Source of the DNA: Methanomassiliicoccales archaeon
GTDB taxonomy: Archaea > Thermoplasmatota > Thermoplasmata > SG8-5
Direction of reading: 5' to 3'
Length of the DNA stretch: 64,000 nucleotides
Assembly (NCBI GenBank): GCA_030612505.1
Contig: JAUWNU010000001.1
Location: 1,233-65,232 of the forward strand
A program made the position numbers and the translations under genes. The notes beneath the pieces were generated by a model, which saw only the letters and a program-made list of their open reading frames with translations, searched no databases and was not told the origin of the DNA. Shown in pieces: positions 5,401 through 63,907 of the stretch (position 1 is the stretch's first letter; every line of letters starts with the position of its first letter).

Positions 5401-8383
5401 ATGGACCTTCGCAGGTGTCACGGCAGGAACCGATACAACATTCTATCTCGAAGCCTATCGCACCAATCTGGATGCCGAGAACATGGAATTCTATTACTCG
5501 ACTTCAGGAAGCGGAAGTGTAAGCACCTGGACACCGATGTTTGATGTGACAGCTACATCAGATCCAGGCCCCCCTGGCCAAACATTTTCAGATGCAATTC
5601 TGGATGCATATACTGGTACGCTCTATGTCGGTGTAATAGATGCCTCATCTGGAGATACAAATCAGGACACAATTTACATTGACCACATGTATTTCAGGGC
5701 ATCTGGCTCAGCATTACCATCGGATTTCGGATTTGATGTTGCCAACATGGGCAATATAAATGACGATGGCAGTGGCACGCCGGACATAGCGATAACCGAC
5801 CCAACTGGCAATAATGGATATACCTATATTTGGGAAGACGGCAATTTCGAAGGCTCATCATCAAGGGAAGATACAGATTTGGCACATTTCACAGCATCTG
5901 GAAGCAGTCTGGCGGACGGAAGCAATCCGAGTAATAACATATTTGCCACATCTGGTGGGGACTTGAATTTGAGTGCTAATATAATCTTTGAAGATGATTT
6001 TGAGGATGACTTTGCAGGGCAGGACCCAGATGATCCACCATGGGGCATACCCACAGAAGACGCTGGTACGAATGTAGAGATAAGCGGCACTGTGAGTCAA
6101 GGTGGTTCTCAGTCCATGATGCTTGACGATGATGCAAGTGCTGATACAACTGGATGTAGCATCGTATCCGATAATTTTGCAGCTACAACGGCAGGTGTGA
6201 TAGAATTCTGGGCCAGATGCACTGACCAGGTAAGCGCCAGTGAACAGTTTGTCATATCCGCCAGAAGTGGTACAACTGATGCAATCCTGGTTGGATTCAT
6301 GGAAGATAGTTTCTGTTATGAGATCGGTACTACAGTCACAATATTTGGTTCATATACACAAAGCCAGTGGTATCATTTTAAGCTTGTATTCGATGCCGCA
6401 ACAGTTACATATGATTATTACATAGATGATGTTTTGAGGTGGGATGATCTTGATTTTACAAATGCTGTGGCTAGCATCAACAACATTGAGATCACAACAA
6501 AACCTTTCAATTTTGTTCCTGATCGTGGTGCCACTCAAGCACTGGGCTACATAGATGATATAATAATATATGAGCCATATGACACCCCAGGCTATTACAC
6601 ATCGTCAACGACCACAGCACCTGGTTACATAACAGCTGTTAAACCATTTTGGAATCTTACAACCCCCGGCGGAACCACAGCCTGGCTCAACATATCAAGG
6701 GATGGCGGCATAACATGGAATCAAAGTGCTTTGACAAATGGCTATTGGTACACCTTCCCAAGTGAGGGTATTGGCAAGGAGCTGTGCTATAAAATTGAGA
6801 TGTCAACCACCAATACCATCACCCCAGTTTTGCAGGATGTCACTCTCTATTACAAATATTGCACACCCGCGAGTATTACATTCACTGGAACTGGTTCTGG
6901 AGACAAGTTCGGCTTCTCGGCAGCTTCAGCTGGAGACATTGATGGTGATGGCATCGATGATTTACTGGTCGGGGCACCTTATAATGATACTGCCGACGGC
7001 ACCAACCCAAATGGCGGGGGCGTATTCGCCTTCTGCGGCGGAGCCTATTTATCTGGCACGATTAGCGCCAGCAATGCCAATTACACCTTCTATGGCGGTA
7101 CAGCAGGTGATATGCTGGGCTATTCAGTTGGAACGATTGGCAACTTCAACAGCCACGGTAATGATGATGTAATAGTCGGAATACCGTTCAACAATTCCAA
7201 TGCTGGCTCTGCGATTGCGCTTTCCATCGCACTGCCAATGAAGACTGCGGTATCCTTCACAGTCGAAGAGCACGGCCTTGAGCCAGAAGCCAAAGTAAAT
7301 ATATCCTGGACAAAGGTAAACGGAGCCACAAAATACAATATTTACCGCTCCGATACTCCGTGGGGATTTGACTTTGGCACACCCGATGCCACTGTGGACG
7401 CGCCAGCCCTTTCATGGGTGGATACAAATGCTCCCAGGAACACTGCCAACCCTCACAACGCCACTTCGTATTATTATGCGGTAAGGGCGGAGAATGCGCT
7501 GGCCGAGAAAGGTCCGTACAAGATATTTGCCATTCACAGGATGGACCTGGTGGACCAATGGAATTTCATCACCTGGTTGTCCAATGAGACCATGGACATT
7601 GAAACTGAAGCATTTGCCAATTTGGAGGCTGATGATGGAGCCAACCCCACCACATTCATTTACGACAAAGTTGAGAGATGGGACCCGGCTAGCCAGGCTG
7701 ATTGGGAATCTTATACCACAGACGGCGATCTCGGCCCCTTCTCTGACATGGCGCCTGGTTATGCCTATGCCATCAATTGCCGGGTTGACGCGGTCTGGAC
7801 TTACGTTGAGGACTGCGGTGTTCCATCCATCTCCACCGCAGATGATTCAGCTCTGGCCGCACCCGGGAGCTTCACGCTGGCGAGGAACGGTGCGAATCCA
7901 AGCCATGTGGACCTCAGCTGGAATACTGTGGCAACCGCAGACCATTACAATATCTACCGCTCTTTCACAAAGTGGGGCTTTGATTTCAACAACCCGATCC
8001 ACAGCACTGCCGACGGTGCGGTGACCAGCTGGACAGATACCACATCCACCCAGGAGAACGGGGCCTACAATGCATCTGTTTATTACTATATCATAAGAAC
8101 CGTGGATGCCAGTGGAGATATCGAGAAGAACCTGAATGCCGCCGCCATGCACAGAATGGACTTCAGGAACGGAATCAACTACATGAGCTGGACACCACAC
8201 GAGACAGTGTCGGAGGAAACGGCACTGGCAAGCCTTGTTCCCTTTGTCGATTACATCTCGGTGGAGCAATGGGATGAATCGACCCAGGTCTTTAACCCGG
8301 CGGTAGCCAACTTCGAAAGGGGATATGGATACGGGATCAATGCAATACAGGCCTGCACCTGGACATATGTAGAATATGCATGA
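2402..8383 (+). CDS. Giant secreted protein (1993 aa) with FG-GAP/integrin-alpha-like repeats, internal repeated beta-sandwich domains, and FN3-like domains at the C-terminus
   Basis: N-terminal signal/TM (KLVSFVIVLSMVCMTALPLA). At least 6 FG-GAP repeats (FGWNVSKAGDVNGDGIDDFIVGAP, FGWDVADAGDVNGGNVDIIIGEP, FGKAGPGAGNTDDSGNADVIVGAP, FGSSVSSAGNTDGVGGTEVVIGEP, FGFSAASAGDIDGDGIDDLLVGAP, LGYSVGTIGNFNSHGNDDVIVGIP). Two FN3-like modules (NISWTKVNGATKYNIYRS and DLSWNTVATADHYNIYRS). RBS GAGGTGAG at 2388-2395. Confidence 0.85.
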   Translation: MKFSTDRWAVKLVSFVIVLSMVCMTALPLATGDDLFEIASGEGDSGAGTTSNFGWNVSKAGDVNGDGIDDFIVGAPNADYLAVTDCGAAFIYFGYDGIQDADLNASNANVSIYGTAASGHFGWDVADAGDVNGGNVDIIIGEPDNGNGKAYIYYGSGAMSATMTTADADVTITGEASGDDFGKAGPGAGNTDDSGNADVIVGAPEADSAKGAAYIFYDSSMAAAIAAGNADVIMNGKHTDGKFGSSVSSAGNTDGVGGTEVVIGEPGSDRAYVYYPPSDQTANADDPVFGTVGNDYTYTQSSNNGYEIIEEEAGAGGRVDLWGTHDMTTGIPTGWSDYDAGGSVSANTWFALAAPTTPPTQGDAPVIWINWELPYNNRALETEAFDFATYSGVEMNFEHFMNAAYLDDLHLEWDNTGGGAGGTWNLIQTWTADGTWTDWTIRNAIDCSAVDGLSDVRFRFRYEATDGNSNGIDYVKVTGNEPTTSKLEHKWTIPVTTGGTFYIEANRTDKLEGDTLNFYYSLTGTGTVGDTGAGWVSMMSQITIPTNGDPNSYQTYSDSTLDTFTGTLYIGVVDADRTSGLTLKDVLCVDHMFVRGIPFKELVGERITQNTDYTATADSAVSGTVTPSTDGYQKTQATDDDYESIQEISVAATYDYDYTTDEWFTQSDSHTNDHTATQVQGGNTEDIVELSVPGAPVPTTETRYMRGDQHTINTLTAYQLGTTQSSTARSSLLEQTGAGGGTVNWGIRVWGIDSDGTETEITSGTPVAQVSRATAGEGIQSNTWACPQTGITDTDAIVVRVYAELSGVIAWTEQAEFISEQLGATLLEDVTWTVYYYTQYATVSGGAPGGRYTRGWFHWGDAAHDSRIDNFVWSVPGPAHYSLEQKWQFTDTPLAASQYEFHAFVGWDGAGAGDDTFEYWYSTTGADPVGGAGWTLMFTDSTSAVNEQTFDLDNDGYTGGALYVGVIDTDSSGDGQDTLIVDYLYVETVITPAYSSLEHKWTFAGVTAGTDTTFYLEAYRTNLDAENMEFYYSTSGSGSVSTWTPMFDVTATSDPGPPGQTFSDAILDAYTGTLYVGVIDASSGDTNQDTIYIDHMYFRASGSALPSDFGFDVANMGNINDDGSGTPDIAITDPTGNNGYTYIWEDGNFEGSSSREDTDLAHFTASGSSLADGSNPSNNIFATSGGDLNLSANIIFEDDFEDDFAGQDPDDPPWGIPTEDAGTNVEISGTVSQGGSQSMMLDDDASADTTGCSIVSDNFAATTAGVIEFWARCTDQVSASEQFVISARSGTTDAILVGFMEDSFCYEIGTTVTIFGSYTQSQWYHFKLVFDAATVTYDYYIDDVLRWDDLDFTNAVASINNIEITTKPFNFVPDRGATQALGYIDDIIIYEPYDTPGYYTSSTTTAPGYITAVKPFWNLTTPGGTTAWLNISRDGGITWNQSALTNGYWYTFPSEGIGKELCYKIEMSTTNTITPVLQDVTLYYKYCTPASITFTGTGSGDKFGFSAASAGDIDGDGIDDLLVGAPYNDTADGTNPNGGGVFAFCGGAYLSGTISASNANYTFYGGTAGDMLGYSVGTIGNFNSHGNDDVIVGIPFNNSNAGSAIALSIALPMKTAVSFTVEEHGLEPEAKVNISWTKVNGATKYNIYRSDTPWGFDFGTPDATVDAPALSWVDTNAPRNTANPHNATSYYYAVRAENALAEKGPYKIFAIHRMDLVDQWNFITWLSNETMDIETEAFANLEADDGANPTTFIYDKVERWDPASQADWESYTTDGDLGPFSDMAPGYAYAINCRVDAVWTYVEDCGVPSISTADDSALAAPGSFTLARNGANPSHVDLSWNTVATADHYNIYRSFTKWGFDFNNPIHSTADGAVTSWTDTTSTQENGAYNASVYYYIIRTVDASGDIEKNLNAAAMHRMDFRNGINYMSWTPHETVSEETALASLVPFVDYISVEQWDESTQVFNPAVANFERGYGYGINAIQACTWTYVEYA

Positions 8384-10389: not shown

Positions 10390-10683
10390 ATGAAAAGCTT
10401 AGAAAAAATACAATCCATCTTATCTACACACAAAGAGGATATAAGGAAGAAGTATGGAGTTAAAGAGATAGGCATCTTTGGCTCCTTTGTGAGAGGTGAG
10501 CAGAAGGAAACAAGTGATGTTGATGTTCTCGTGGATTTTGAAGAAGTGCCTGATCTATTAAAGTTTATAGAGCTGGAAAGGTATCTTGAGGAACTTCTGG
10601 GCATTAAGGCGGACCTTGTGAGAAAACAGGCGATAAGGAAAGAGTTGAAGGATAGGATATTAGGGGAGGCTGGAATGGTATGA
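10390..10683 (+). CDS. mntA: MntA-type nucleotidyltransferase antitoxin
   Basis: GIFGSFVRGEQKETSDVDVLVDF NT motif. RBS GAAGGAGG at 10374-10381. 4-nt overlap with the downstream HepT gene. Confidence 0.85.
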   Translation: MKSLEKIQSILSTHKEDIRKKYGVKEIGIFGSFVRGEQKETSDVDVLVDFEEVPDLLKFIELERYLEELLGIKADLVRKQAIRKELKDRILGEAGMV

Positions 10684-11036
10684 AAAGAGACAATCGCCTC
10701 TACATACAGGATATTTTAGATGGCATTAATAAAATAGAGGAGTTCGTCGGGGACATGAATCTTGAAGAGTTTGCCGATGACGATAAAACCAGCAGTGCGG
10801 TTGTGAGAAAACTTGAAATCATTGGCGAAGCGACCAAGAACGTCCCTGAGGATATAAGGGAAAAATACAAAGAAATTCCCTGGGTTGATATGGCGAGAAT
10901 GAGAGATAAAATCATCCACTTTTATTTTGGCGTTGACCATGAGATCGTCTGGAAGGTTGTAAAAGAGCGGCTTCCGGAGATTAAACCATGGTTAATTGAA
11001 ATTATAAAAAATTGGGGGAACGAGTTAGATAGCTGA
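10680..11036 (+). CDS. hepT: HepT/DUF86 HEPN-family toxin
   Basis: DUF86 signature RDKIIHFYFGVDHEIVW (R-x4-HxY HEPN motif). Translationally coupled to mntA. Confidence 0.85.
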   Translation: MKRDNRLYIQDILDGINKIEEFVGDMNLEEFADDDKTSSAVVRKLEIIGEATKNVPEDIREKYKEIPWVDMARMRDKIIHFYFGVDHEIVWKVVKERLPEIKPWLIEIIKNWGNELDS

Positions 11037-12067: not shown

Positions 12068-12553
12068 ATGTATAATCGCATACTTGCTGACATGGATTTC
12101 GAGATTACTGTAAGCCGAAATGCGCCGCTGACCTCCCTGGACGACCTGGAAGAGGTTTGCGCTATTTTTCTTAGTAATATCGGGTACTTGCCAAAGGGTT
12201 ATGGCCCCCGTACTGGGGTATCTGAGATAAGGGAGAGCGTTCCGTTCCGCTTGTTTGTGGACTTTTTTTTACTGCGTCGGGACAAAACCTGGCTGGTGGA
12301 AGAACTGGCCCACGAGCTGAAAACCTCCAAACCCACAATTTACAGGCATATCAAGAAGTTGAAGAGCATGGATTTACTGGAAGAAGCTTATCTCGATACT
12401 GAAGCAGGCACACAGCGTAAGGGCTACAAACTGAGATATGGCAGCCTGGGAGATGCCTGGCATTTTGCCGAGGAACATGTTACAGTGGCAATGGCAAATT
12501 ATCGAAAGACTATTGATCATATTCAAACACTGGCAGAGAAAAAGAGGAAGTGA
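12068..12553 (+). CDS. Winged-helix (ArsR/TrmB-like) transcriptional regulator
   Basis: wHTH-like segment LVEELAHELKTSKPTIYRHIKKLKSMDLLEE. Confidence 0.5.
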   Translation: MYNRILADMDFEITVSRNAPLTSLDDLEEVCAIFLSNIGYLPKGYGPRTGVSEIRESVPFRLFVDFFLLRRDKTWLVEELAHELKTSKPTIYRHIKKLKSMDLLEEAYLDTEAGTQRKGYKLRYGSLGDAWHFAEEHVTVAMANYRKTIDHIQTLAEKKRK

Positions 12554-12557
12554 ATAA

Positions 12558-12848
12558 ATGAAGAAAGATGAAGAGGAAGACAATGGCGTGGTTTTAACAC
12601 CCAACTCAAGATACAGAATAAAATCCCTGGAATCCAGGGATAATCCACTGGTCACCAGCGGCAAGTTCATTGGCTACACCGCAATTGGCCATGACGAAGG
12701 CATGGCAATAGAGCTGGACAGCACCCATGATAAGGACAAGGGAAAGATTCGCATTGTGCCTACCCACACCATCATCTCAATAGACATTATCGAGGCAGTG
12801 GAGAAGGAAGAGAAAAAGCAGCAACGTTCCAGCACAATGTACGGGTGA
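12558..12848 (+). CDS. Hypothetical small acidic protein
   Basis: ORF with AGAGGAAG upstream. Ends ...STMYG, like the 13134 protein. Confidence 0.4.
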   Translation: MKKDEEEDNGVVLTPNSRYRIKSLESRDNPLVTSGKFIGYTAIGHDEGMAIELDSTHDKDKGKIRIVPTHTIISIDIIEAVEKEEKKQQRSSTMYG

Positions 12849-12858
12849 ACAATTGGCA

Positions 12859-12965
12859 TGGTCTATGCTTAGTTATCGTTAACAGAGGGTCTGAGTTTGT
12901 ATACAAAAGTGATAGGGTCTTTGCTTGGTTATTGTTAATTAGGGTCTAGGATATGCTGGCAATAA
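12859..12965 (+). repeat. Tandem 27-bp repeat array (about 4 units, same family as 28962-29115), ending in a terminator-like hairpin ATGCTGGCaataaaGCTGCCAGCAT plus T-run
   Basis: Units start with (A/T)GGGTCT and carry the core TATCGTTAA. Confidence 0.7.
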
Positions 12966-12990
12966 AGCTGCCAGCATCTTTCTGTTTTCC
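12948..12990 (+). terminator. Hairpin ATGCTGGCaataaaGCTGCCAGCAT followed by CTTTCTGTTTTCC, downstream of the 12558-12848 gene
   Basis: Perfect 8-9 bp stem plus T-rich tract. Archaeal terminators are mainly oligo-T, so the hairpin may be incidental. Confidence 0.35.
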
Positions 12991-13078
12991 TAACACCCTG
13001 AACCCAAACATAATCCAAACATGTTGCAAACACCCTAGCCCCTAGACCCTGAACCCTATACCCAAACATATTGTAAAC
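12991..13078 (-). repeat. Inverted-orientation copies of the same 27-bp repeat family (CCCTGAACCC/AGACCCT motifs)
   Basis: The reverse complement gives AGGGTCTAGGGGCTAGGGTG... The block CCCTAGACCCTGAACCCT is shared with 63751-63770. Confidence 0.6.
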
Positions 13079-13133: not shown

Positions 13134-13454
13134 ATGTCACACATATTCGACACCTCAAGCCTTGAAGGCAAGATTCTTTTACTACTGGTTGAGGTGTATC
13201 CAGTTACCATGAAGGACATATCCAATTATCTCAATGAATCAATGAAAAGAGTGGAGAGGAGCGTCCAGATACTTGCCAAGAAGGGACTGATAGGCCTGGA
13301 GCCTCTGCCAGATGAAATTTTTGTAACACTCACAAGTGGAGATTTTTCGTTCAAGGGAAAAGAAACCGAGCAACTGAAAAAGGTCCGGGAAAAGCTCAAG
13401 AAACAGCAGGACTGGCATCTGCCAGATGATGAAGATAATGTGATGTATGGATAA
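13134..13454 (+). CDS. Small winged-helix DNA-binding protein
   Basis: KILLLLVEVYPVTMKDISNYLNESMKRVERSVQILAKKGLI resembles a MarR/Lrp-like wHTH. Confidence 0.45.
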   Translation: MSHIFDTSSLEGKILLLLVEVYPVTMKDISNYLNESMKRVERSVQILAKKGLIGLEPLPDEIFVTLTSGDFSFKGKETEQLKKVREKLKKQQDWHLPDDEDNVMYG

Positions 13455-13477
13455 TGCTAAAAAGCAGATAGTTGAAC

Positions 13478-13515
13478 GCACTAGCGAATTAATAGCAAGC
13501 GTTCGACGATGGCAT
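13478..13515 (+). other. Conserved hairpin GTTGAACGC-(20-nt loop)-GCGTTCGAC followed by GATGGCATG. The same stem, with a 3-nt loop, is at 29118-29140 beside the 27-bp array.
   Basis: The 9-bp inverted repeat is conserved between the two loci while the loop length differs. Downstream AATGCC(A/G)TACTG is also shared (13530 and 29172). Confidence 0.5.
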
Positions 13516-13699
13516 GGCAACAATCTATTACTAAATTAAATGCCATACTGCTCATGGCAATCTGTAAGTAATAGGTGAATGCATAACTAAATCCAGCAAT
13601 AAAGAGCATTCGTCATGATTGATCAATGTCCAAGTAATCGCAATCAAAAAATTCCGTAATCTTCGTAACTAACAATCTACAAATAGAGAGATTATGGGT

Positions 13700-15431: not shown

Positions 15432-15454
15432 TCAGACCCACATAAGACTGGTCT

Positions 15455-15464
15455 AATATAAAAG
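15455..15464 (-). promoter_or_regulatory. TATA box (TTTATATT on the minus strand) for the aIF1A-RIO1-KH operon
   Basis: AT-rich octamer 24-33 nt upstream of the aIF1A start codon, consistent with leaderless archaeal transcription. Confidence 0.5.
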
Positions 15465-15748
15465 ATGTACTGGAGTATTTTTGTGAAATTATCTGCGCTG
15501 GCTCACTGAACATGTCCGAGCAGGATGCGCGAATTCTTTCGGAATTCAAGCCAGTAACACCCATGCGATTTGTGAGTGTTACTGTCGAACCTTCAGGTTT
15601 GCGGATGAAGCGAGGAATGGTTCAGTATCAGGGCTTCTCTGGGTTTTAACCCAGAGAAGTGCTTCCCACTCTAAGAATTCCGTTAGACATCCCTGAATAT
15701 CATTGATGACAGTATAACCAATTTTCATATGTCATTCAATGTAAAACT

Positions 15749-15818
15749 GATAGGGATGCCGCTGCTTTCGGGCGTTAACCCGAAAGCAGACCACCCTTTA
15801 GGGTTGGGGAGCCCTCAC
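15749..15818 (+). repeat. Copy 1 of a approx. 70-nt GC-rich hairpin element (GATAGGGATGCC-GCTGCTTTCGGG-cgttaa-CCCGAAAGCAGACC-ACCCTTTAGGGTTGGGGAGCCCTCA)
   Basis: Near-identical to 27855-27921. The linked motif GAACCTTCAGGTTTGCGGAT at 15586-15606 also recurs at 27761-27781. Confidence 0.7.
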
Positions 15819-16222
15819 CTTTCGCAAAAAGAAATATTCGGTAAAGAAAAACTCCAGGTGAGTCCTGCTCGATAATTTGAATGGCCAGAAAGGTTATTTC
15901 ATTGAAAGAAATATCTTGACTGGGGAAAGAGAATGCGCGGGAAGAAGATACGGGCTCCTGCATCGGGGAAGGCCAGTGTCTGCTATTGTCTTCAGCATAA
16001 CCTCCCTGGGCGCTTTGATGGCATTCGGGTGAAGTGAGAGTTAATTGACCCGAAAATTAATTACGGCACAAAGAAATCTCCTGGTCGAGGAAAGGGCCTC
16101 CAGGTGAGTTTTTGGAAACTTTCAAGATCTCTCTCCAGCCCAGGGGCTCCCTCAAAAACTCGGGGAAAAGGTTTTATTCGTTCCGGCAATGTCTGACCTT
16201 CAATAACTTGGAGTTGACTTGA

Positions 16223-20252: not shown

Positions 20253-21011
20253 TTACTTACCCTGTATCTTCTGCAGATTATTTGCCCGTCTATTGTAGTT
20301 CAGGGCTTCTGCTTCATGGTTCTTGCTGCGTTCCAGTAATGCCTTTGCCTTCTGGCGTTTGGCTGCTGCCTTCTGTGTGTTCTTGGCAGAATTTGACATC
20401 CAGCTGCTGGATTTGCTCTTCATCCTTGCTGCTTTGGTCTTGAGTTTCGCAACCCTCACCCTGGTGCGCTCTGCCTTTCCGTCCTCAAGATATTCCAGAT
20501 CTGCCTGTTTATCATCGGCCTTGGCCATTGCATTCTTGCCTTTTTCGATGTATCTTTCGGCTTTACGCCTGGCCTTATTAGAATTTTCCTGGTACTTGAT
20601 CATGGCAGCTTCCTCTGTCATGTATTTTTTGAAAAGCTTTGCTTCCTCCGCACTGTGTTTGGCTGCCCTCTGCCTGAGAATTGTAACATCATGATATTCA
20701 GCAGCCCGCATCTTGTCATGTCTGGTATGGGCAATTTCAGCCTCAATATCTTTTTCCTGTTTTGGCTCTTCAGTCAATTCTTCTGATTCTGATGTGCTGG
20801 GTGTTTCATCTGCCGGCATCAAATAATCATGGGAATATGCTGCTTTCGAGTCATCATTCGAAAGCAGAGCCGCACTCTCCTTTTTCACTGGAGGAAGTTC
20901 TTCTTTCATCTGCGATTGCGAAGTTTCCTCTTCTTTCTTCTTACTGATGGCCTTTCCACCGCCATAGAATATCTCATCTTCCTCTTCCAAATCTGAGCTC
21001 ATAATTATCAA
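20253..21011 (-). CDS. Highly charged K/E/A-rich low-complexity protein (coiled-coil-like), hypothetical
   Basis: Long ORF with biased composition and an acidic N-terminal segment. Confidence 0.4.
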   Translation of the reverse strand: MIIMSSDLEEEDEIFYGGGKAISKKKEEETSQSQMKEELPPVKKESAALLSNDDSKAAYSHDYLMPADETPSTSESEELTEEPKQEKDIEAEIAHTRHDKMRAAEYHDVTILRQRAAKHSAEEAKLFKKYMTEEAAMIKYQENSNKARRKAERYIEKGKNAMAKADDKQADLEYLEDGKAERTRVRVAKLKTKAARMKSKSSSWMSNSAKNTQKAAAKRQKAKALLERSKNHEAEALNYNRRANNLQKIQGK

Positions 21012-27589: not shown

Positions 27590-27721
27590 AATATCACTTG
27601 TAAACCACCAGGCCTTAAAATATTTGGCGTTCTTATTCATGCCTGTATGTTTCCAAAAGGCCAGTCGCACACCTAACTTCTCGGAACTATCGGTTCCGAG
27701 TTTATTAAACACGCGCCACAC

Positions 27722-27785
27722 CCTAATACCGCTGCTTTCGGGTATGGCCCGAAAGCAGAGCAACCTTCAGGTTTGCGGATACAGG
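27722..27785 (+). repeat. Partial copy of the hairpin element (GCTGCTTTCGGGtatggCCCGAAAGCAGAG) fused to the GAACCTTCAGGTTTGCGGAT motif
   Basis: Shares both sub-motifs with the 15586-15818 region. Confidence 0.65.
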
Positions 27786-27838
27786 GTGCTCATCAAAATG
27801 ATATATTTCATTTTATTGGATTGGCGTGTTTTTAATAA

Positions 27839-27921
27839 GGGCTCCCAGGTATCCGATAGGGATACCGCTGCTTTCGGGCGTTAACCCGAAAGCAGACCAT
27901 CCTTTAGGGTGGGGAGCCCTC
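27839..27921 (+). repeat. Copy 2 of the approx. 70-nt hairpin element, here embedded in an outer inverted repeat GGGCTCCC...GGGAGCCC
   Basis: GATAGGGATACCGCTGCTTTCGGGCGTTAACCCGAAAGCAGACCATCCTTTAGGGTGGGGAGCCCTCA, more than 90 percent identical to 15749-15818. Confidence 0.7.
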
Positions 27922-27965
27922 ATTTGATTAGAAATGTACGGTATGCGACGATCATTCACGCGTTA

Positions 27966-28961: not shown

Positions 28962-29115
28962 TTTAGGGTCTAGCTTAATTAACTCTGATAATGGGTCTAG
29001 GGTCTGCGTTTAGTCATCGTTATTAAGGGTCTGTGCTTAATTATCGTTAGTTAGGGTCTTTGTTTAATTATCGTTAGTAAGGGCCTATGCTTGGCTATCG
29101 TTAGAGAGGGGCTAG
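28962..29115 (+). repeat. Tandem array of about 5 copies of a 27-bp repeat (consensus AGGGTCTNTGNTTAATTATCGTTAGTT) followed by hairpin GTTGAACGCaagGCGTTCGAC
   Basis: Head-to-tail units with no spacers, visible directly in the sequence. The same family occurs at 12859-13078 and 63751-63895. Confidence 0.8.
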
Positions 29116-29378
29116 TTCGTTGAACGCAAGGCGTTCGACAATGGCATGAGAACGCATTCAAAATAAATGGAATGCCGTACTGTTAAAAGTGTTCTGAAAG
29201 CAATTGTTGGGTTCGATGGCTAAATAAAAACAAATGCAGAACCCGACCTGATATGGCTTAAAGCAATCTGCCAGCATAATATCAGAAGGCCCGCAATCAC
29301 ACTTGCGTTAAAAAAACGATTGCGGTGGTGCACAAGTTGGTCTTTTATCCGAAACATATATAATCACGTATATTCGTA

Positions 29379-31697
29379 TTGAATAATACAAGAGGGGAAG
29401 CCATGAGGCAATCTACTTTGCAATTCAAGTGGGCAGTGATATTGACCAGTATTCTAATGATAAGCAGCACACTGGCTGCTGCCATGATAGTTGGTTCCAC
29501 CTCACCAGATGGAGGATTGGAAACCCTAAATGCTGGAGAACCGAACATCTTCTGGATTGGATTCAATGACACTGCAGGAACATCCAGGCTTGACCAGATG
29601 GTTGATGTTGAGAACTGGTATAATTTCACATGTGGATTCAATTACAGCTAGGGCTTTTTCAATTGCGAGATTATTGTAGAGGCCTGGTATGACTGTGGGC
29701 TGGCAGGAAACAGTTCTGCTTACCCACCAGAAACAGAGGACAACCGGAGTCTGGCCTTCAGCCTTCTATACGATGTTGCGACAGTCTCTTACACCATACA
29801 GTACCCGGGAGCAACACCAGGTACCATGGAGATAGCTATAAACGATTCCTGGGACACTGCTGTCATTGACTGGGTGCACCCAACCAACTCCCCAATGGAG
29901 GACATACTTGCACTGACAATACCAATTTACCTGGGACCGCAGATAAGAAATGCAGATGGCAATGGCTTTGGCTCTGGAGATTTAGATTATAATTCAGACC
30001 CAAATAATGCCTTACTGGACATAAACAGCTGGGACTTCGAGATCACTGTAAGGGACTCTGCAAATACTTCACTGGCTTCTTCCAGCTACGGAGAGTTCGG
30101 AATCAACCCGCATTGTGATATTTCTGTTACTGGAAATCCTGTTGGGGAAGCACCACCTGGCACTGCCGCTACTCTCCTGGCAAATCCAACTCATATCACC
30201 TATTCAGCTAACAATGATTATTGGGTCAATGTTTCTGTGACTAATCTTCTGGAAAATGGTGTAGGGCCAGCTTCTATTTCTGCAACCGATGTAGAAGTTC
30301 AAAATTCTGACCCATATGCAACTACTGGTAACTCAGATATATCCGCACAAACATATTTCCCTGGCCCAGGTATTGATATGCAAGTCTGGGGACAGCCAGG
30401 TATTCCAATGAATGCCCCAGGAAATGGAACAATAGCTACTGGCCCCTGGGTATCTGATTACAATGCAGCAATGTATGGGCTAAATGACTATACCCAGCTT
30501 GATTGGTGGATCACGGTTAGTGCAGCTACGCCAGAAGGGGTTTATTATGGAGATATCACAATTACAATAGAAGATTCTAATGGAAACACAGTAATGGACC
30601 AGACTACTCAGATAATTGTCAATGTTGTTTTCCCTCATTTATATTGGATTGGATTCAATGGAACAGGCATGAACTCAAAACTTGACCAGGTTGTAGATAC
30701 TGATAACTGGTACAATTTTACAGTGACTGGCAATTATTCACAGGGTTGGAACGGCCTCCAGGTGGAGATAAGGGCATGGTATGATAATGGTAATATTGGC
30801 TTTATGTCAACATATCCTCCTGTAACTCCTGAAAATAAAAACCTGGCATTCAGTATTACATATGAAGTTTTCAGTGGAATTTGCACTGTATATTATCCAA
30901 TAGGGCCGCAGGTTCAGGTAGGAACAGTCAGTGATGTGATCACATGGATAAATCCAATAAACATAGGAGAAGACTGGCATACTGTCAACATTCCAGTTTA
31001 CCTTGGAAATTCATTGATTTCCGCTGATGGTATGGGCTTCGCCAGTGGTGACCTTGCCTATCACTCTGACCCTAATTTGGCCTTGCAGGATGCTTTCAGC
31101 TGGGACTTTGAGGTCATTCTCAGGGATGCAATCAACCCAACAGCCTTGGACTTAAGCTATGCAGAATTCGGCCTTGACAACTCAACGCCCAGCTTTCCAA
31201 TATCTCTAGACGCTGGCTGGAATCTTATTTCGCTGCCGCTTGAACAGGCAGATGAATATTTGCCATCTGTTCTGAGTTCCATTGACGGCCAGTATGATAT
31301 TGTGAAATACTATGATGCCACTGACCAAAATGACCCATGGAAAACCTACAGAATAGGCGCATCAACCAATGATTTATTTTCAATTGATAGGACAATGGGT
31401 TTCTGGATTCATCTTACAGCAAATAATGGCGACCAGACATTGACGACAGGTATTGAAGGCACTTTCCCACCAGCCGCAGTAACTCTATACGCTGGCTGGA
31501 ATCTTGTTAGTTATCCTTCCATATCCCCGGATACTGTCGCAAATGCCTTATGGGGCACAGGAGCCGATATAGTCGAAGTATTTGACCCTGCAGAGCCTTA
31601 TTTGATAAGAGAGGTAAATGCGGATTATATGATGCAGCCTGGAGAAGGTTATTGGGTTCATGTTCCTGCGGACACAATATGGATGGTTGATTGGTAA
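29379..31697 (+). pseudogene. Secreted protein gene with two approx. 330-aa tandem repeats and a C-terminal GWNL domain, interrupted by a single in-frame TAG at 29649-29651. Either a pseudogene, a sequencing error, or split into ORFs 29379-29651 and 29826-31697.
   Basis: Both ORFs are in the same frame. The N-terminal signal peptide is in ORF1. The repeat motif NIFWIGFNDTAGTSRLDQMVDVENWYNFT (ORF1) matches LYWIGFNGTGMNSKLDQVVDTDNWYNFT (ORF2), and the alignment continues across the stop. Confidence 0.65.
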
Positions 31698-40770: not shown

Positions 40771-40990
40771 AGTTGGTGTAATTTGTATTTAATTGTTATC
40801 CATTTTGCTTGGAGATTGTTTGAATAATGTAAATAAGTCTTACAACCTTAACTATTATCCAGCTATTATCCGGTGCAAGACGATGGCGGCTATGCAAGAG
40901 CTTGAAATGTTTCAACTGTGCCAGAACGTGAACTGTGCTGATAAGACAAAGAATGGTGCCAGTGCAAATCCTCTTGCGGGATTTGTTTTA

Positions 40991-63623: not shown

Positions 63624-63750
63624 GTTCATGCGCCCCGACCAGGGTTTTGTCGAAGAAGCTTGCTTCGAGATGTAGATCAATCATTGGATGGGTTTGAAAG
63701 AATGAGGGGGCTGATTGGTGCAAGAAACCGGATGCAGGCAGGCCGTCCTG

Positions 63751-63895
63751 GACCCTGAACCCTAGACCCTCTCTAACGATAACCAAACACAGACCCTCAA
63801 TAACAATAACCAAACACAGACCCTTACTAACGATAATTAAACGCAGCCCCTTACTAACAACAATTAATCATAGCCCCTATATTAGAGCATAAAAT
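63751..63895 (-). repeat. Tandem array of about 4-5 copies of the 27-bp repeat family in reverse orientation (CTCTAACGATAACCAAACACAGACCCT units)
   Basis: The reverse complement matches the 28962-29115 consensus AGGGTCTGTGTTTGGTTATCGTTAGAG. Confidence 0.75.
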
Positions 63896-63907
63896 AATTG
63901 TAAAAGT

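Follow-up and report, generated by a model that had tools for sequence, protein, structure and literature searches.

Intergenic 27-bp repeat arrays of an uncultured Thermoplasmata archaeon, probable copies of a young, lineage-specific minisatellite and heptamer family

The DNA considered here is a stretch of 64 kb (the window), and its host is an archaeon, since it encodes an archaeal-type SAM synthetase (read from the ORF translation), aIF-1A, a Rio kinase, a KH/PNO1-like protein and a CDP-archaeol synthase; the database proteins nearest to its own are supplied by Thermoplasmata MAGs. Three of its 24 intergenic gaps hold head-to-tail arrays of a 27-bp unit (loci A, B and C). These gaps lie in tandem, divergent and convergent contexts, as an earlier sequence-only reading had described, and the neighbouring genes code for HTH proteins, a KH protein, an epimerase, surface proteins and a probable topoisomerase I; two HTH genes, at 12068-12553 and 13134-13454, stand on either side of array A. 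The features of the three loci are the following:

12859..12950, plus strand: forward arm of array A, about 3.5 degenerate units, namely ATGGTCT plus 20 nt (from 12859), AGGGTCT plus an odd 21-nt body with the palindrome TTGTATACAA (12886), AGGGTCT plus 20 nt (12914) and a terminal AGGGTCTAGG (12941); also recovered in the independent assembly L014
12953..12990, plus strand: central hairpin of locus A, ATGCTGGCA-ATAAAGC-TGCCAGCAT, followed by the T-rich tail CTTTCTGTTTTCC; terminator-like
12991..13078, minus strand: inverted arm of element A, G-rich on the minus strand, with five heptamers and degenerate unit remnants
28962..29115, plus strand: array B, a start unit with TTAATTAA, one extra GGGTCT, four 27-bp units (28999, 29026, 29053, 29080) and a terminal AGGGGCTAG
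63747..63905, minus strand: array C, a start unit (63879-63905), four 27-bp units (63771-63878) and the heptamers AGGGTCT, AGGGTTC and AGGGTCC (63747-63770)

The presence of head-to-tail 27-bp arrays at three intergenic loci, first proposed by eye, is borne out by several kinds of search. For example, two tracts of period 27 are detected by TRF, one of 3.9 copies at 28999-29104, with 81% matches, and one of 4.3 copies at 63764-63878, and the unit consensus, with at most 3 mismatches, has three matches in the window against 0.00 expected from 100 shuffles. A profile HMM built from 12 units recovers 10 units in the window, every one within loci A to C; the rest of the window and about 78 kb of related DNA yield no further unit. 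Of 13 occurrences of the heptamer itself (AGGGTCT/AGACCCT) in the window, 11 fall inside the three array loci. Over 118 nt, array B is 80% complementary to array C; the two are mutually inverted and lie 34.6 kb apart.

On its G-rich strand the unit reads AGGG(T/G/C)CT followed by a 20-nt body, NYGNTTRRTTATYGTTANNN. Among the 12 units, positions 1-4, 6-7, 10, 12-13, 19 and 22-24 are invariant, so that the invariant columns are spread over the whole 27-mer. The first unit of an array is atypical (..TTAATTAACTCTGATAAT at B and ..CAATTATTTTATGCTCTAATAT at C), each array ends in AGGGNCTAG, and in the odd unit of array A (12886-12913) the place of the 20-nt body is taken by sequence unrelated to the other units. 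Bare heptamers (AGGGTCT, AGGGTTC and similar) trail or mirror the 27-bp arrays and flank the GC hairpin at locus A. The arrays are non-coding, because stops close all six frames in every one of them. Locus A is two-armed, running from units through a hairpin with a T-rich tail to inverted heptamers, and the whole element folds in single-stranded DNA as a long imperfect hairpin (z -3.1). Forward units were correctly seen there by the sequence-only reading (about 3.5 degenerate ones, at 12859-12950), but what it took for "inverted copies" at 12991-13078 consists, for the most part, of bare 7-bp heptamers on the opposite strand and not of 27-mers; five of these are contiguous at about 13033-13063 (GGGTATA GGGTTCA GGGTCTA GGGGCTA GGGTG on the minus strand). 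The terminal units B5 and C4 share 23 of 27 positions and are closer to each other than to their own array neighbours. A unique register between arrays B and C was considered and rejected, unit-by-unit identities being similar in two registers with only B5/C4 clearly matching.

In all six arms examined, the G-rich strand begins 0-46 nt from the nearest ORF and is directed away from it. The distance is 11 nt at A, where the array follows the stop codon of a 96-aa gene; 0-27 nt at C, whose start unit lies immediately 3' of the TAA of the probable topoisomerase I gene; 3 nt in the related contig L022; and 46 nt, upstream of the ORF and on the non-coding strand, at B, where the array starts just upstream of the conserved epimerase promoter region. 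Tandem heptamer runs with a G3 tract are found at about 13033-13063, at 63747-63770, and at positions 6240-6257 and 107-121 of the related contigs L003 and L022, respectively. Across the window and about 80 kb of related loci, canonical G-quadruplex motifs (G3N1-7x4) fall only in these elements, and the sole one of the window is the run at 13033-13063. Runs of at least four consecutive G-tracts are restricted to element A and L003, the adjacent tracts in arrays B and C numbering two to three.

This arrangement might suggest that the arrays are transcribed 3'-UTR or RNA-level elements, in which a G-quadruplex or a hairpin terminates transcription, stabilises mRNA ends or blocks read-through. 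The hairpin and T-run of locus A, which score as a terminator-like site, the confinement of the G3N1-7x4 motifs to these elements and the stops in every frame are all in line with such a role. However, oligo-T is required in archaeal termination and is missing from the units, no terminator-like site is present at arrays B and C, canonical G-quadruplex potential exists at one of the three window loci only, and no gene precedes array B in the orientation of the array. The proximity to stop codons would be expected anyway, because the original gaps measured 1-4 nt. Terminator function was rejected as a general explanation, the terminator-like site being confined to locus A. On the other side, an RNA-level role has been proposed for the G-rich heptamer repeats and REPs of bacteria, and the bacterial heptamer analogues are mostly transcribed (PMC4692102). 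On balance, a role of this kind appears quite improbable for the arrays of the window, though the many invariant columns of the unit and a divergence of array B similar to that of the neighbouring coding DNA leave some probability to it and to protein binding.

The history of the arrays can be followed in related DNA. Pattern scans with AGGGNCTNNGNTTRRYTATYGTTA gave one true relative (L003) and four chance matches among genome contigs, eight single chance matches among metagenome contigs and none among viral contigs. L003 being the only true relative found by pattern, further related DNA was reached through the proteins adjoining the arrays and their contigs, and copy number is read within the 64-kb window and these related loci. 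Independent assemblies reproduce the arrays, and at locus A the one from the same strain (L014) is identical to the window. At the site of array A, where the window has 285 nt, the relative L016 (flanking genes 79% identical) reads TAA-T-ATG, a gap of 1 nt, and no target-site duplication is visible at this empty site. In another relative, L087 (86%), the same place is taken by an unrelated insert of 366 nt, with the downstream wHTH promoter conserved; this promoter, which had been considered as part of element A, was rejected as such, since it is kept beside a different insert. In two other samples (L085 and L086, 96-aa protein 94% identical) an array A' follows the same stop codon, with the odd unit first and then three standard units, about 4.5 units against about 3.5 in the window. 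Unit order and number therefore differ between strains, which is the comparison that the sequence-only reading had called for. Arrays A' and A are 67% identical with indels of whole units, against 90% in the flanking gene. The hairpin and tail of L085 match the L003 type and not that of the window. The GCTGGC..GCCAGC stem of locus A is found also in L003 and L017, and in mutated form in L085.

Array B has an ortholog, B', in L082 (epimerase 91%, from the same sample as L014), which differs by substitutions and one indel and is about 88% identical to B, against 85% in the neighbouring coding DNA. The heptamer is perfectly kept between B and B', and the unit bodies drift. Array B and the adjoining hairpin module (described below) are both absent from L017-L021 (epimerase 91%), L083 (90%) and L022/L023 (87%); in the array-free relatives similarity to the window stops at GGTTATTATGRATTTCG, exactly at the edge of array B before its first unit. 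Related elements of heptamers and a hairpin are also present at other sites in two other Thermoplasmata MAG lineages. For example, two ORFs of the Thermoplasmata MAG contig L003 converge on a gap occupied by GGGTCTAGGGTCTAGGG, a hairpin, an inverted 27-mer and a heptamer, and both stop within the outer TAG of the repeat (outer TAGGGTCT). In L022, heptamers surround a CTGCTT..AAGCAG hairpin 3 nt after the kaiC stop, a site that is plain in the window. The short-read contigs of L082 (inside array B'), L085 and L086 end within or just past arrays, as expected of multi-copy repeats. From the comparison of relatives, therefore, the repeat family is lineage-restricted, polymorphic in presence, variable in its units and placed at different loci in each lineage, and its arrays are, judging by presence and absence at orthologous sites, recent insertions.

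Insertion polymorphism of this sort could also be produced by a transposon. According to this explanation, the arrays would be subterminal transposase-binding repeats of an undescribed archaeal transposon, the two-armed copies (locus A and L003) being MITEs and arrays B and C solo or rearranged ends. At locus A and in L003 a short core lies between inverted arms, B and C are mutually inverted, the insertion polymorphisms are clean, and an L003-type core occurs at the window's locus A in another strain, all of which would fit. Nevertheless, no transposase was found in the scanned ORFs of the window or in the gene tables of the related loci, no target-site duplication is visible, and the genes that B and C enclose are chromosomal ones, with synteny maintained in relatives devoid of arrays. 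As regards MITEs, the arms at locus A and in L003 are inverted but have unequal internal spacing, and they do not look like true terminal inverted repeats because the spacing is 27 bp in one arm and 7 bp in the other. A transposon of this type is, consequently, an unlikely source of the arrays.

A different possibility is that the arrays are binding sites of a lineage-specific DNA-binding protein, acting as operator, centromere or insulator-like iterons or as gene-end punctuation. Heptad arrays recognised by the RHH protein omega are known from plasmid pSM19035. In the same way, the heptads here might be read by an omega/RHH-like protein, or the 27-mers by a multi-domain or oligomerising factor; both modes belong to the same reading and share its low probability. 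The invariant columns throughout the 27-mer, the perfect conservation of the heptamer between B and B' while the bodies change, the direct and inverted heptad runs about a centre, the two HTH genes flanking array A and the abutment of array B on a promoter point in this direction. However, the same operon and promoter exist without arrays in relatives, no functional theme unites the loci (tandem, divergent and convergent gaps, housekeeping and surface genes), strains differ in the number and order of units, and no candidate protein co-varies with the arrays in the available data. In addition, successive sites would face different sides of the helix, because a period of 27 bp corresponds to 2.6 helical turns. 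Protein binding as the reason for the arrays is thus rather doubtful, although the spread-out invariant columns and a divergence of array B no faster than that of coding DNA (88% vs 85%) are compatible with selection for a putative binding site.

Another issue is the relation of the arrays to surface-protein genes, since arrays B and C had been noticed to bracket an island of such genes. The genes of L021 run in the order epimerase, Big_5/C14 surface protein, a 443-aa protein, PRT, CarS, KaiC and topoisomerase I. The window has the same backbone, its right-end gene having a Topo I-like C-terminus, and adds to it an extra 623-aa gene beside array B and a 22.8-kb block of surface-protein genes (40991-63623) between kaiC and topA, which is missing in L021 and L017. 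In L022 the epimerase gene adjoins PRT, and the Big_5 region beside the array B site is missing. The arrays might accordingly be regarded as recombination or boundary elements that delimit or mobilise a variable surface-protein island, with the inverted arrays B and C 34.6 kb apart, array C at the right edge of the block and array B beside the variable Big_5 region. Bracketing is physically true, but the bracketed interval also holds the 446aa-PRT-CarS-KaiC genes, which are syntenic with the epimerase gene in array-free relatives, and these relatives keep the Big_5/C14 gene beside the epimerase. Moreover, the left edge of the block (40771-40990) lacks an array, no integrase or recombinase gene is present, and none of the copies at array A, L003 and L022 has an island. 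A boundary role, half true at most on account of the position of array C, is therefore very improbable; at most, the arrays accumulate where intergenic DNA was reshuffled.

Nor does the neighbourhood point to a replication origin. Iterons and ORB elements resemble the arrays in having direct and inverted repeats of about 20-30 bp; unlike them, the arrays have no adjacent initiator gene and no AT-rich unwinding element between arms, occupy three loci in 64 kb, and are missing from the corresponding sites of the close relatives L016, L017-L023, L083 and L087. No orc1/cdc6 or rep gene was found among the scanned array neighbours, and the lineages lacking the arrays are 79-91% identical, so the iteron idea put forward from the letters was not upheld in the sense of a replication origin. 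Both the iteron and the island-boundary readings are unsupported, because the housekeeping genes of the B to C interval are still syntenic in relatives lacking arrays and no Orc1/Rep, cas or transposase gene lies nearby. On the other hand, the exclusion of CRISPR was right, since the period-27 units have no spacers and cas genes are lacking (Pfam scans of the larger window ORFs gave no Cas domain). Searches of other kinds were also negative: Rfam gave no match at any repeat, neither at the gathering threshold nor at E<=5; no tRNAs were found; blastn of array B plus the module against phage and plasmid collections returned no match; exact-protein look-ups of the window epimerase and aIF-1A gave nothing new; and searches with the heptamer strings returned nothing relevant, no description of these sequences having come up in the literature searched.

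Taken together, the arrays are probably copies of a young, lineage-specific, non-coding family of interspersed minisatellite and heptamer repeats, of the MIRU, STRR or REP kind, in an uncultured Thermoplasmata archaeon. Of the possibilities originally listed, the minisatellite family is the one that agrees with head-to-tail, non-coding units dispersed over intergenic sites and differing in order and number between strains. The seed of the family would be the G-rich heptamer (T)AGGGTCT, which contains CTAG, and its simplest members would be short direct and inverted heptamer runs around a GC-rich hairpin. In the lineage of the window, the heptamer and about 20 nt of adjacent sequence may have been amplified head-to-tail into 27-bp units. 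Elements would enter intergenic gaps that are otherwise tiny, as clean insertions whose G-rich strand points away from the nearest gene end. Unit number and order would then change by slippage or unequal recombination, as at MIRU-VNTR loci. Spread probably proceeds by the copying of whole arrays or parts of them between loci, with slippage in place as the next step; copying between loci is suggested because the terminal units of B and C best match each other (23/27) and because an L003-type core occurs at locus A in another strain. Mobility is read from presence and absence only, since no transposase, target-site duplication or autonomous parent element was seen. The repeats would be selfish or neutral, presumably lacking a dedicated function, and their cellular effects (six-frame stops, the locus A hairpin and, in some copies, heptamer runs capable of forming G-quadruplexes) could be by-products. 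A dedicated function is unnecessary to explain the data.

Several known repeat systems are comparable with this family. MIRU units measure 40-100 bp, whereas the units described here are of 27 bp, closed in all frames and tied to a heptamer and a hairpin; in MIRU units, Supply et al. (1997, 2000) reportedly described small ORFs overlapping the stop and start codons on either side. The likeness to the MIRU-VNTR loci of Mycobacterium tuberculosis lies in a single family of tandem units at several intergenic loci, often within operons, with differences in copy number between strains (PMC3635867). Another example is provided by the GGGNATC repeats of Xanthomonas and Nostoc, which are non-coding and run to 2-26 units with four preferred; they adjoin the 5'-neighbouring ORF, following stops on the coding strand or preceding starts on the non-coding one, with occasional overlap of the stop codon (PMC4692102). 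All six arms examined here follow the same rule of placement. As in these GGGNATC/STRR heptamers, the unit of 7 bp has a G3 tract, comes in runs of 2-5, is mostly intergenic and varies in number; it lies near the 5'-neighbouring ORF in any orientation, with overlap of the stop in L003, and runs of four form a canonical G-quadruplex motif (PMC4692102). Unlike them, the family has an archaeal host and a heptamer, GGGTCTA, that carries CTAG, and most of its copies here are 27-bp units (the heptamer and a conserved 20-nt body), often as inverted pairs around a hairpin.

In bacteria, to which their description is confined in one survey, REP/BIME elements are palindromes of 20-40 bp with a GTAG or CGTC tag at one end, and they are thought to be mobilised in trans (PMC3733652). 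The archaeal repeats share with them short GC-rich hairpins with a flanking tag, a position downstream of genes between tandem or convergent ORFs and a frequent arrangement as inverted pairs (PMC3733652). In contrast to REPs, it is the repeated heptamer that serves as tag, and the hairpin at 12953-12977 is preceded by AGGGTCTAGGAT, without GTAG or CGTC. A more far-reaching proposal, which we hold only as a faint possibility, would make the AGGGTCT heptads and 27-mers the recognition arrays of a clade-specific protein, either a MITE transposase or a gene-end heptad-binding factor, so that heptads, 27-mers and the CTGCTTTCG and GCTGGC hairpins would jointly amount to an archaeal equivalent of REP/BIME with G-quadruplex-capable tags.

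If the interpretation as a young repeat family is correct, the biology of interspersed minisatellites, G-rich heptamers and REP-like repeats, well known in bacteria, extends to uncultured Thermoplasmata. It would also account for the breaks of short-read assemblies at particular intergenic sites in these populations, provide VNTR markers for telling co-existing strains apart in metagenomes and point out the only G-quadruplex motifs of the region. At the same time, it drops the unsupported idea that the arrays mark origins or the limits of a surface-protein island.

Finally, a second repeated feature is found in the same part of the window. The conserved hairpin motifs noted by the sequence-only reading are real, GCGTTCGACNATGGCATG being exact at 13499 and 29131, and the surrounding similarity covers about 135-150 nt with three hairpins (H1 to H3). 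The copies of this module, together with a possible related remnant, are the following:

13468..13618, plus strand: module copy A, H1 with a 19-nt loop insertion, H3 GGTGAATGC/GCATTCGTC; located where the wHTH and KH genes converge
29116..29251, plus strand: module copy B, H1 GTTGAACGC/GCGTTCGAC, H2 ATGGCAT/ATGCCGT, H3 GTTGGGTTC/GAACCCGAC
29250..29277, plus strand: possible remnant of an array-terminal hairpin, GATATGG..AATCTGCCAGCAT, resembling GATATGCTGGCA..AAGCTGCCAGCAT of locus A

The coupling of arrays and hairpin that had been proposed turned out to be incidental. The module abuts the array at locus B only; it is absent at C, and at A it lies 390 nt from the array with a complete gene in between, a gene that is conserved in relatives having neither array nor module. 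The H1 stem, of 9 bp, does not differ between copies, and its loop measures 3 or 19 nt (3 nt in the ortholog of module copy A in L015); H2 has 7 bp and H3 has 9 bp. In H3, four pairs are changed on both sides between the paralogous copies with pairing kept. H1 and H3 have the same orientation, share the foot GKTG...CGNC and stand about 4-6 nt from the limits of similarity, the boundaries being inferred from one paralogous comparison. The flanks are xTAG on one side and TGAT on the other in both independent copies (n = 2 only). In the relatives L016 and L087 the module is lacking from the gap that holds copy A. A scan of viral contigs for the H1 hairpin gave 58 matches, about what a rough estimate by chance predicts, and none of them was followed by ATGGCAT.

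By its architecture, the module looks like a small element distinct from the arrays and similar to the PATEs, the palindrome-associated transposable elements of haloarchaea, which are derived from IS200/IS605 (PMC3119063). In fact, it has no inverted terminal repeats, is too short to code, carries similar near-terminal palindromes in the same orientation and shows insertion polymorphism, one element lying next to or inside another repeat (PMC3119063). Unlike PATEs, it has no tnpA/tnpB parent IS in the window, and only two independent copies. Because the independent insertions are just two, architecture is the whole basis of this comparison. The module would have been inserted independently at two sites, one of which happened to be the end of array B. 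Alternatively, it may be the gene of a small structured RNA, present as two non-mobile paralogous copies. The three conserved stems with variable loops, the four compensatory pairs of H3 and the fold z-scores of the plus strand (-1.95 to -3.2) are what such a gene would display. Nevertheless, there is no Rfam match at E<=5, no TATA/BRE or other promoter-like sequence is shared upstream of the two copies, the module is missing from the same gap in relatives at 79-86% identity, a covariance model retrieves no further copy in 148.6 kb, and H1 and H3 are near-terminal and alike as in PATEs; an RNA gene is therefore not a likely identity for it. As for the sequence at 29250-29277, it matches the locus A hairpin at 12 of 13 positions, and 6 of 2000 local shuffles did as well, but equal scores occur elsewhere in the window. 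If this remnant is real, module B sits inside an array and hairpin element, an arrangement that is suggestive only.

A family of REP-like hairpins, with the consensus CTGCTTYYG-loop-CRRAAGCAG, occurs four times in the window, where 0 copies would be expected, and also in two relatives, the Thermoplasmata MAG contig L003 and L022, which is free of array B (one of the AGGGTCT-led arrays of 27-bp units).

15762-15789, window, hairpin
20840-20867, window, hairpin
27732-27758, window, hairpin
27868-27895, window, hairpin
2207-2266, L003, hairpin
126-151, L022, hairpin

One copy lies within an ORF (20253-21011, minus strand). The hairpin is arranged in tandem in L003, and in L022 AGGGTCT heptamers stand on its flanks. 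This suggests a single superfamily to which both the heptamer tag and hairpins of several types belong. Possible relics occur downstream of topoisomerase I in two array-free relatives: the hairpin GGCTGGCT..AGCCAGCC of L017 (1195-1230) and, in L021 (2340-2400), motifs like CCCCTAGC and TATACCCAAATATC look like decayed members of the window's heptamer/hairpin repeat family.

The window also holds a second dispersed repeat, whose two copies are 96% identical across 69 nt.

27838-27921, full copy
15749-15817, 5'-truncated copy

For the full copy, the predicted fold is four-way, resembles a cloverleaf and is very stable (-55.9 kcal/mol, z -7.9); neither ARAGORN nor Rfam recognized it. TAGGGT follows the central hairpin. 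In the window, 376 nt (27590-27965) separate the NTP-transferase gene from the epimerase gene; in relatives, including the strain L082, which shares array B, the two genes are spaced by 0-4 nt or slightly overlap. This segment appears to be a further intergenic insertion, clean and of very recent date, here inside an operon. Another gap, of 791 nt, separates the divergent aIF-1A and SAM synthetase genes (15432-16222); it is gene-free, contains repeat fragments and has no Rfam match, and the short-read contig of an independent assembly (L014) stops 24 nt inside it.

Exactly where the window has array A, the 86% relative L087 carries a different, hairpin-rich insert of about 330 nt (1144-1476), for which no similarity to any part of the window was found. 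Insertions seem to be favoured in this gap, as at a hot spot. The string TGAACAATTGGC, a stop codon plus 9 nt, lies 3' of a 96-aa gene in the window (12846-12857) and 3' of a wHTH gene in L087 (1828-1839), MYG being the C-terminal end of both proteins; this shared string may be a recombination footprint. Upstream of locus A are two gene pairs, likely toxin-antitoxin modules.

1576-2320, nucleotidyltransferase/HEPN (MNT-HepT type) pair
10390-11036, nucleotidyltransferase/HEPN (MNT-HepT type) pair

Further along the window, kaiC and the probable topA gene enclose a surface-protein block.

40991-63623, surface-protein block, 22.8 kb

It comprises one 3308-aa S8 protease/beta-helix protein, three BNR/Big_5 paralogues of about 1180 aa and small genes in between; kaiC and topA are adjacent in L021, and in L017 a single gene of 298 aa lies between them. 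The surface protein beside array B looks split into ORFs of 90 aa (29379-29651) and 623 aa (29826-31697), the former carrying the signal/TM segment together with a motif, WIGFN..DNWYNF, found again in the latter in a different frame; the split could reflect a frameshift or a sequencing error, or the gene could be a pseudogene.
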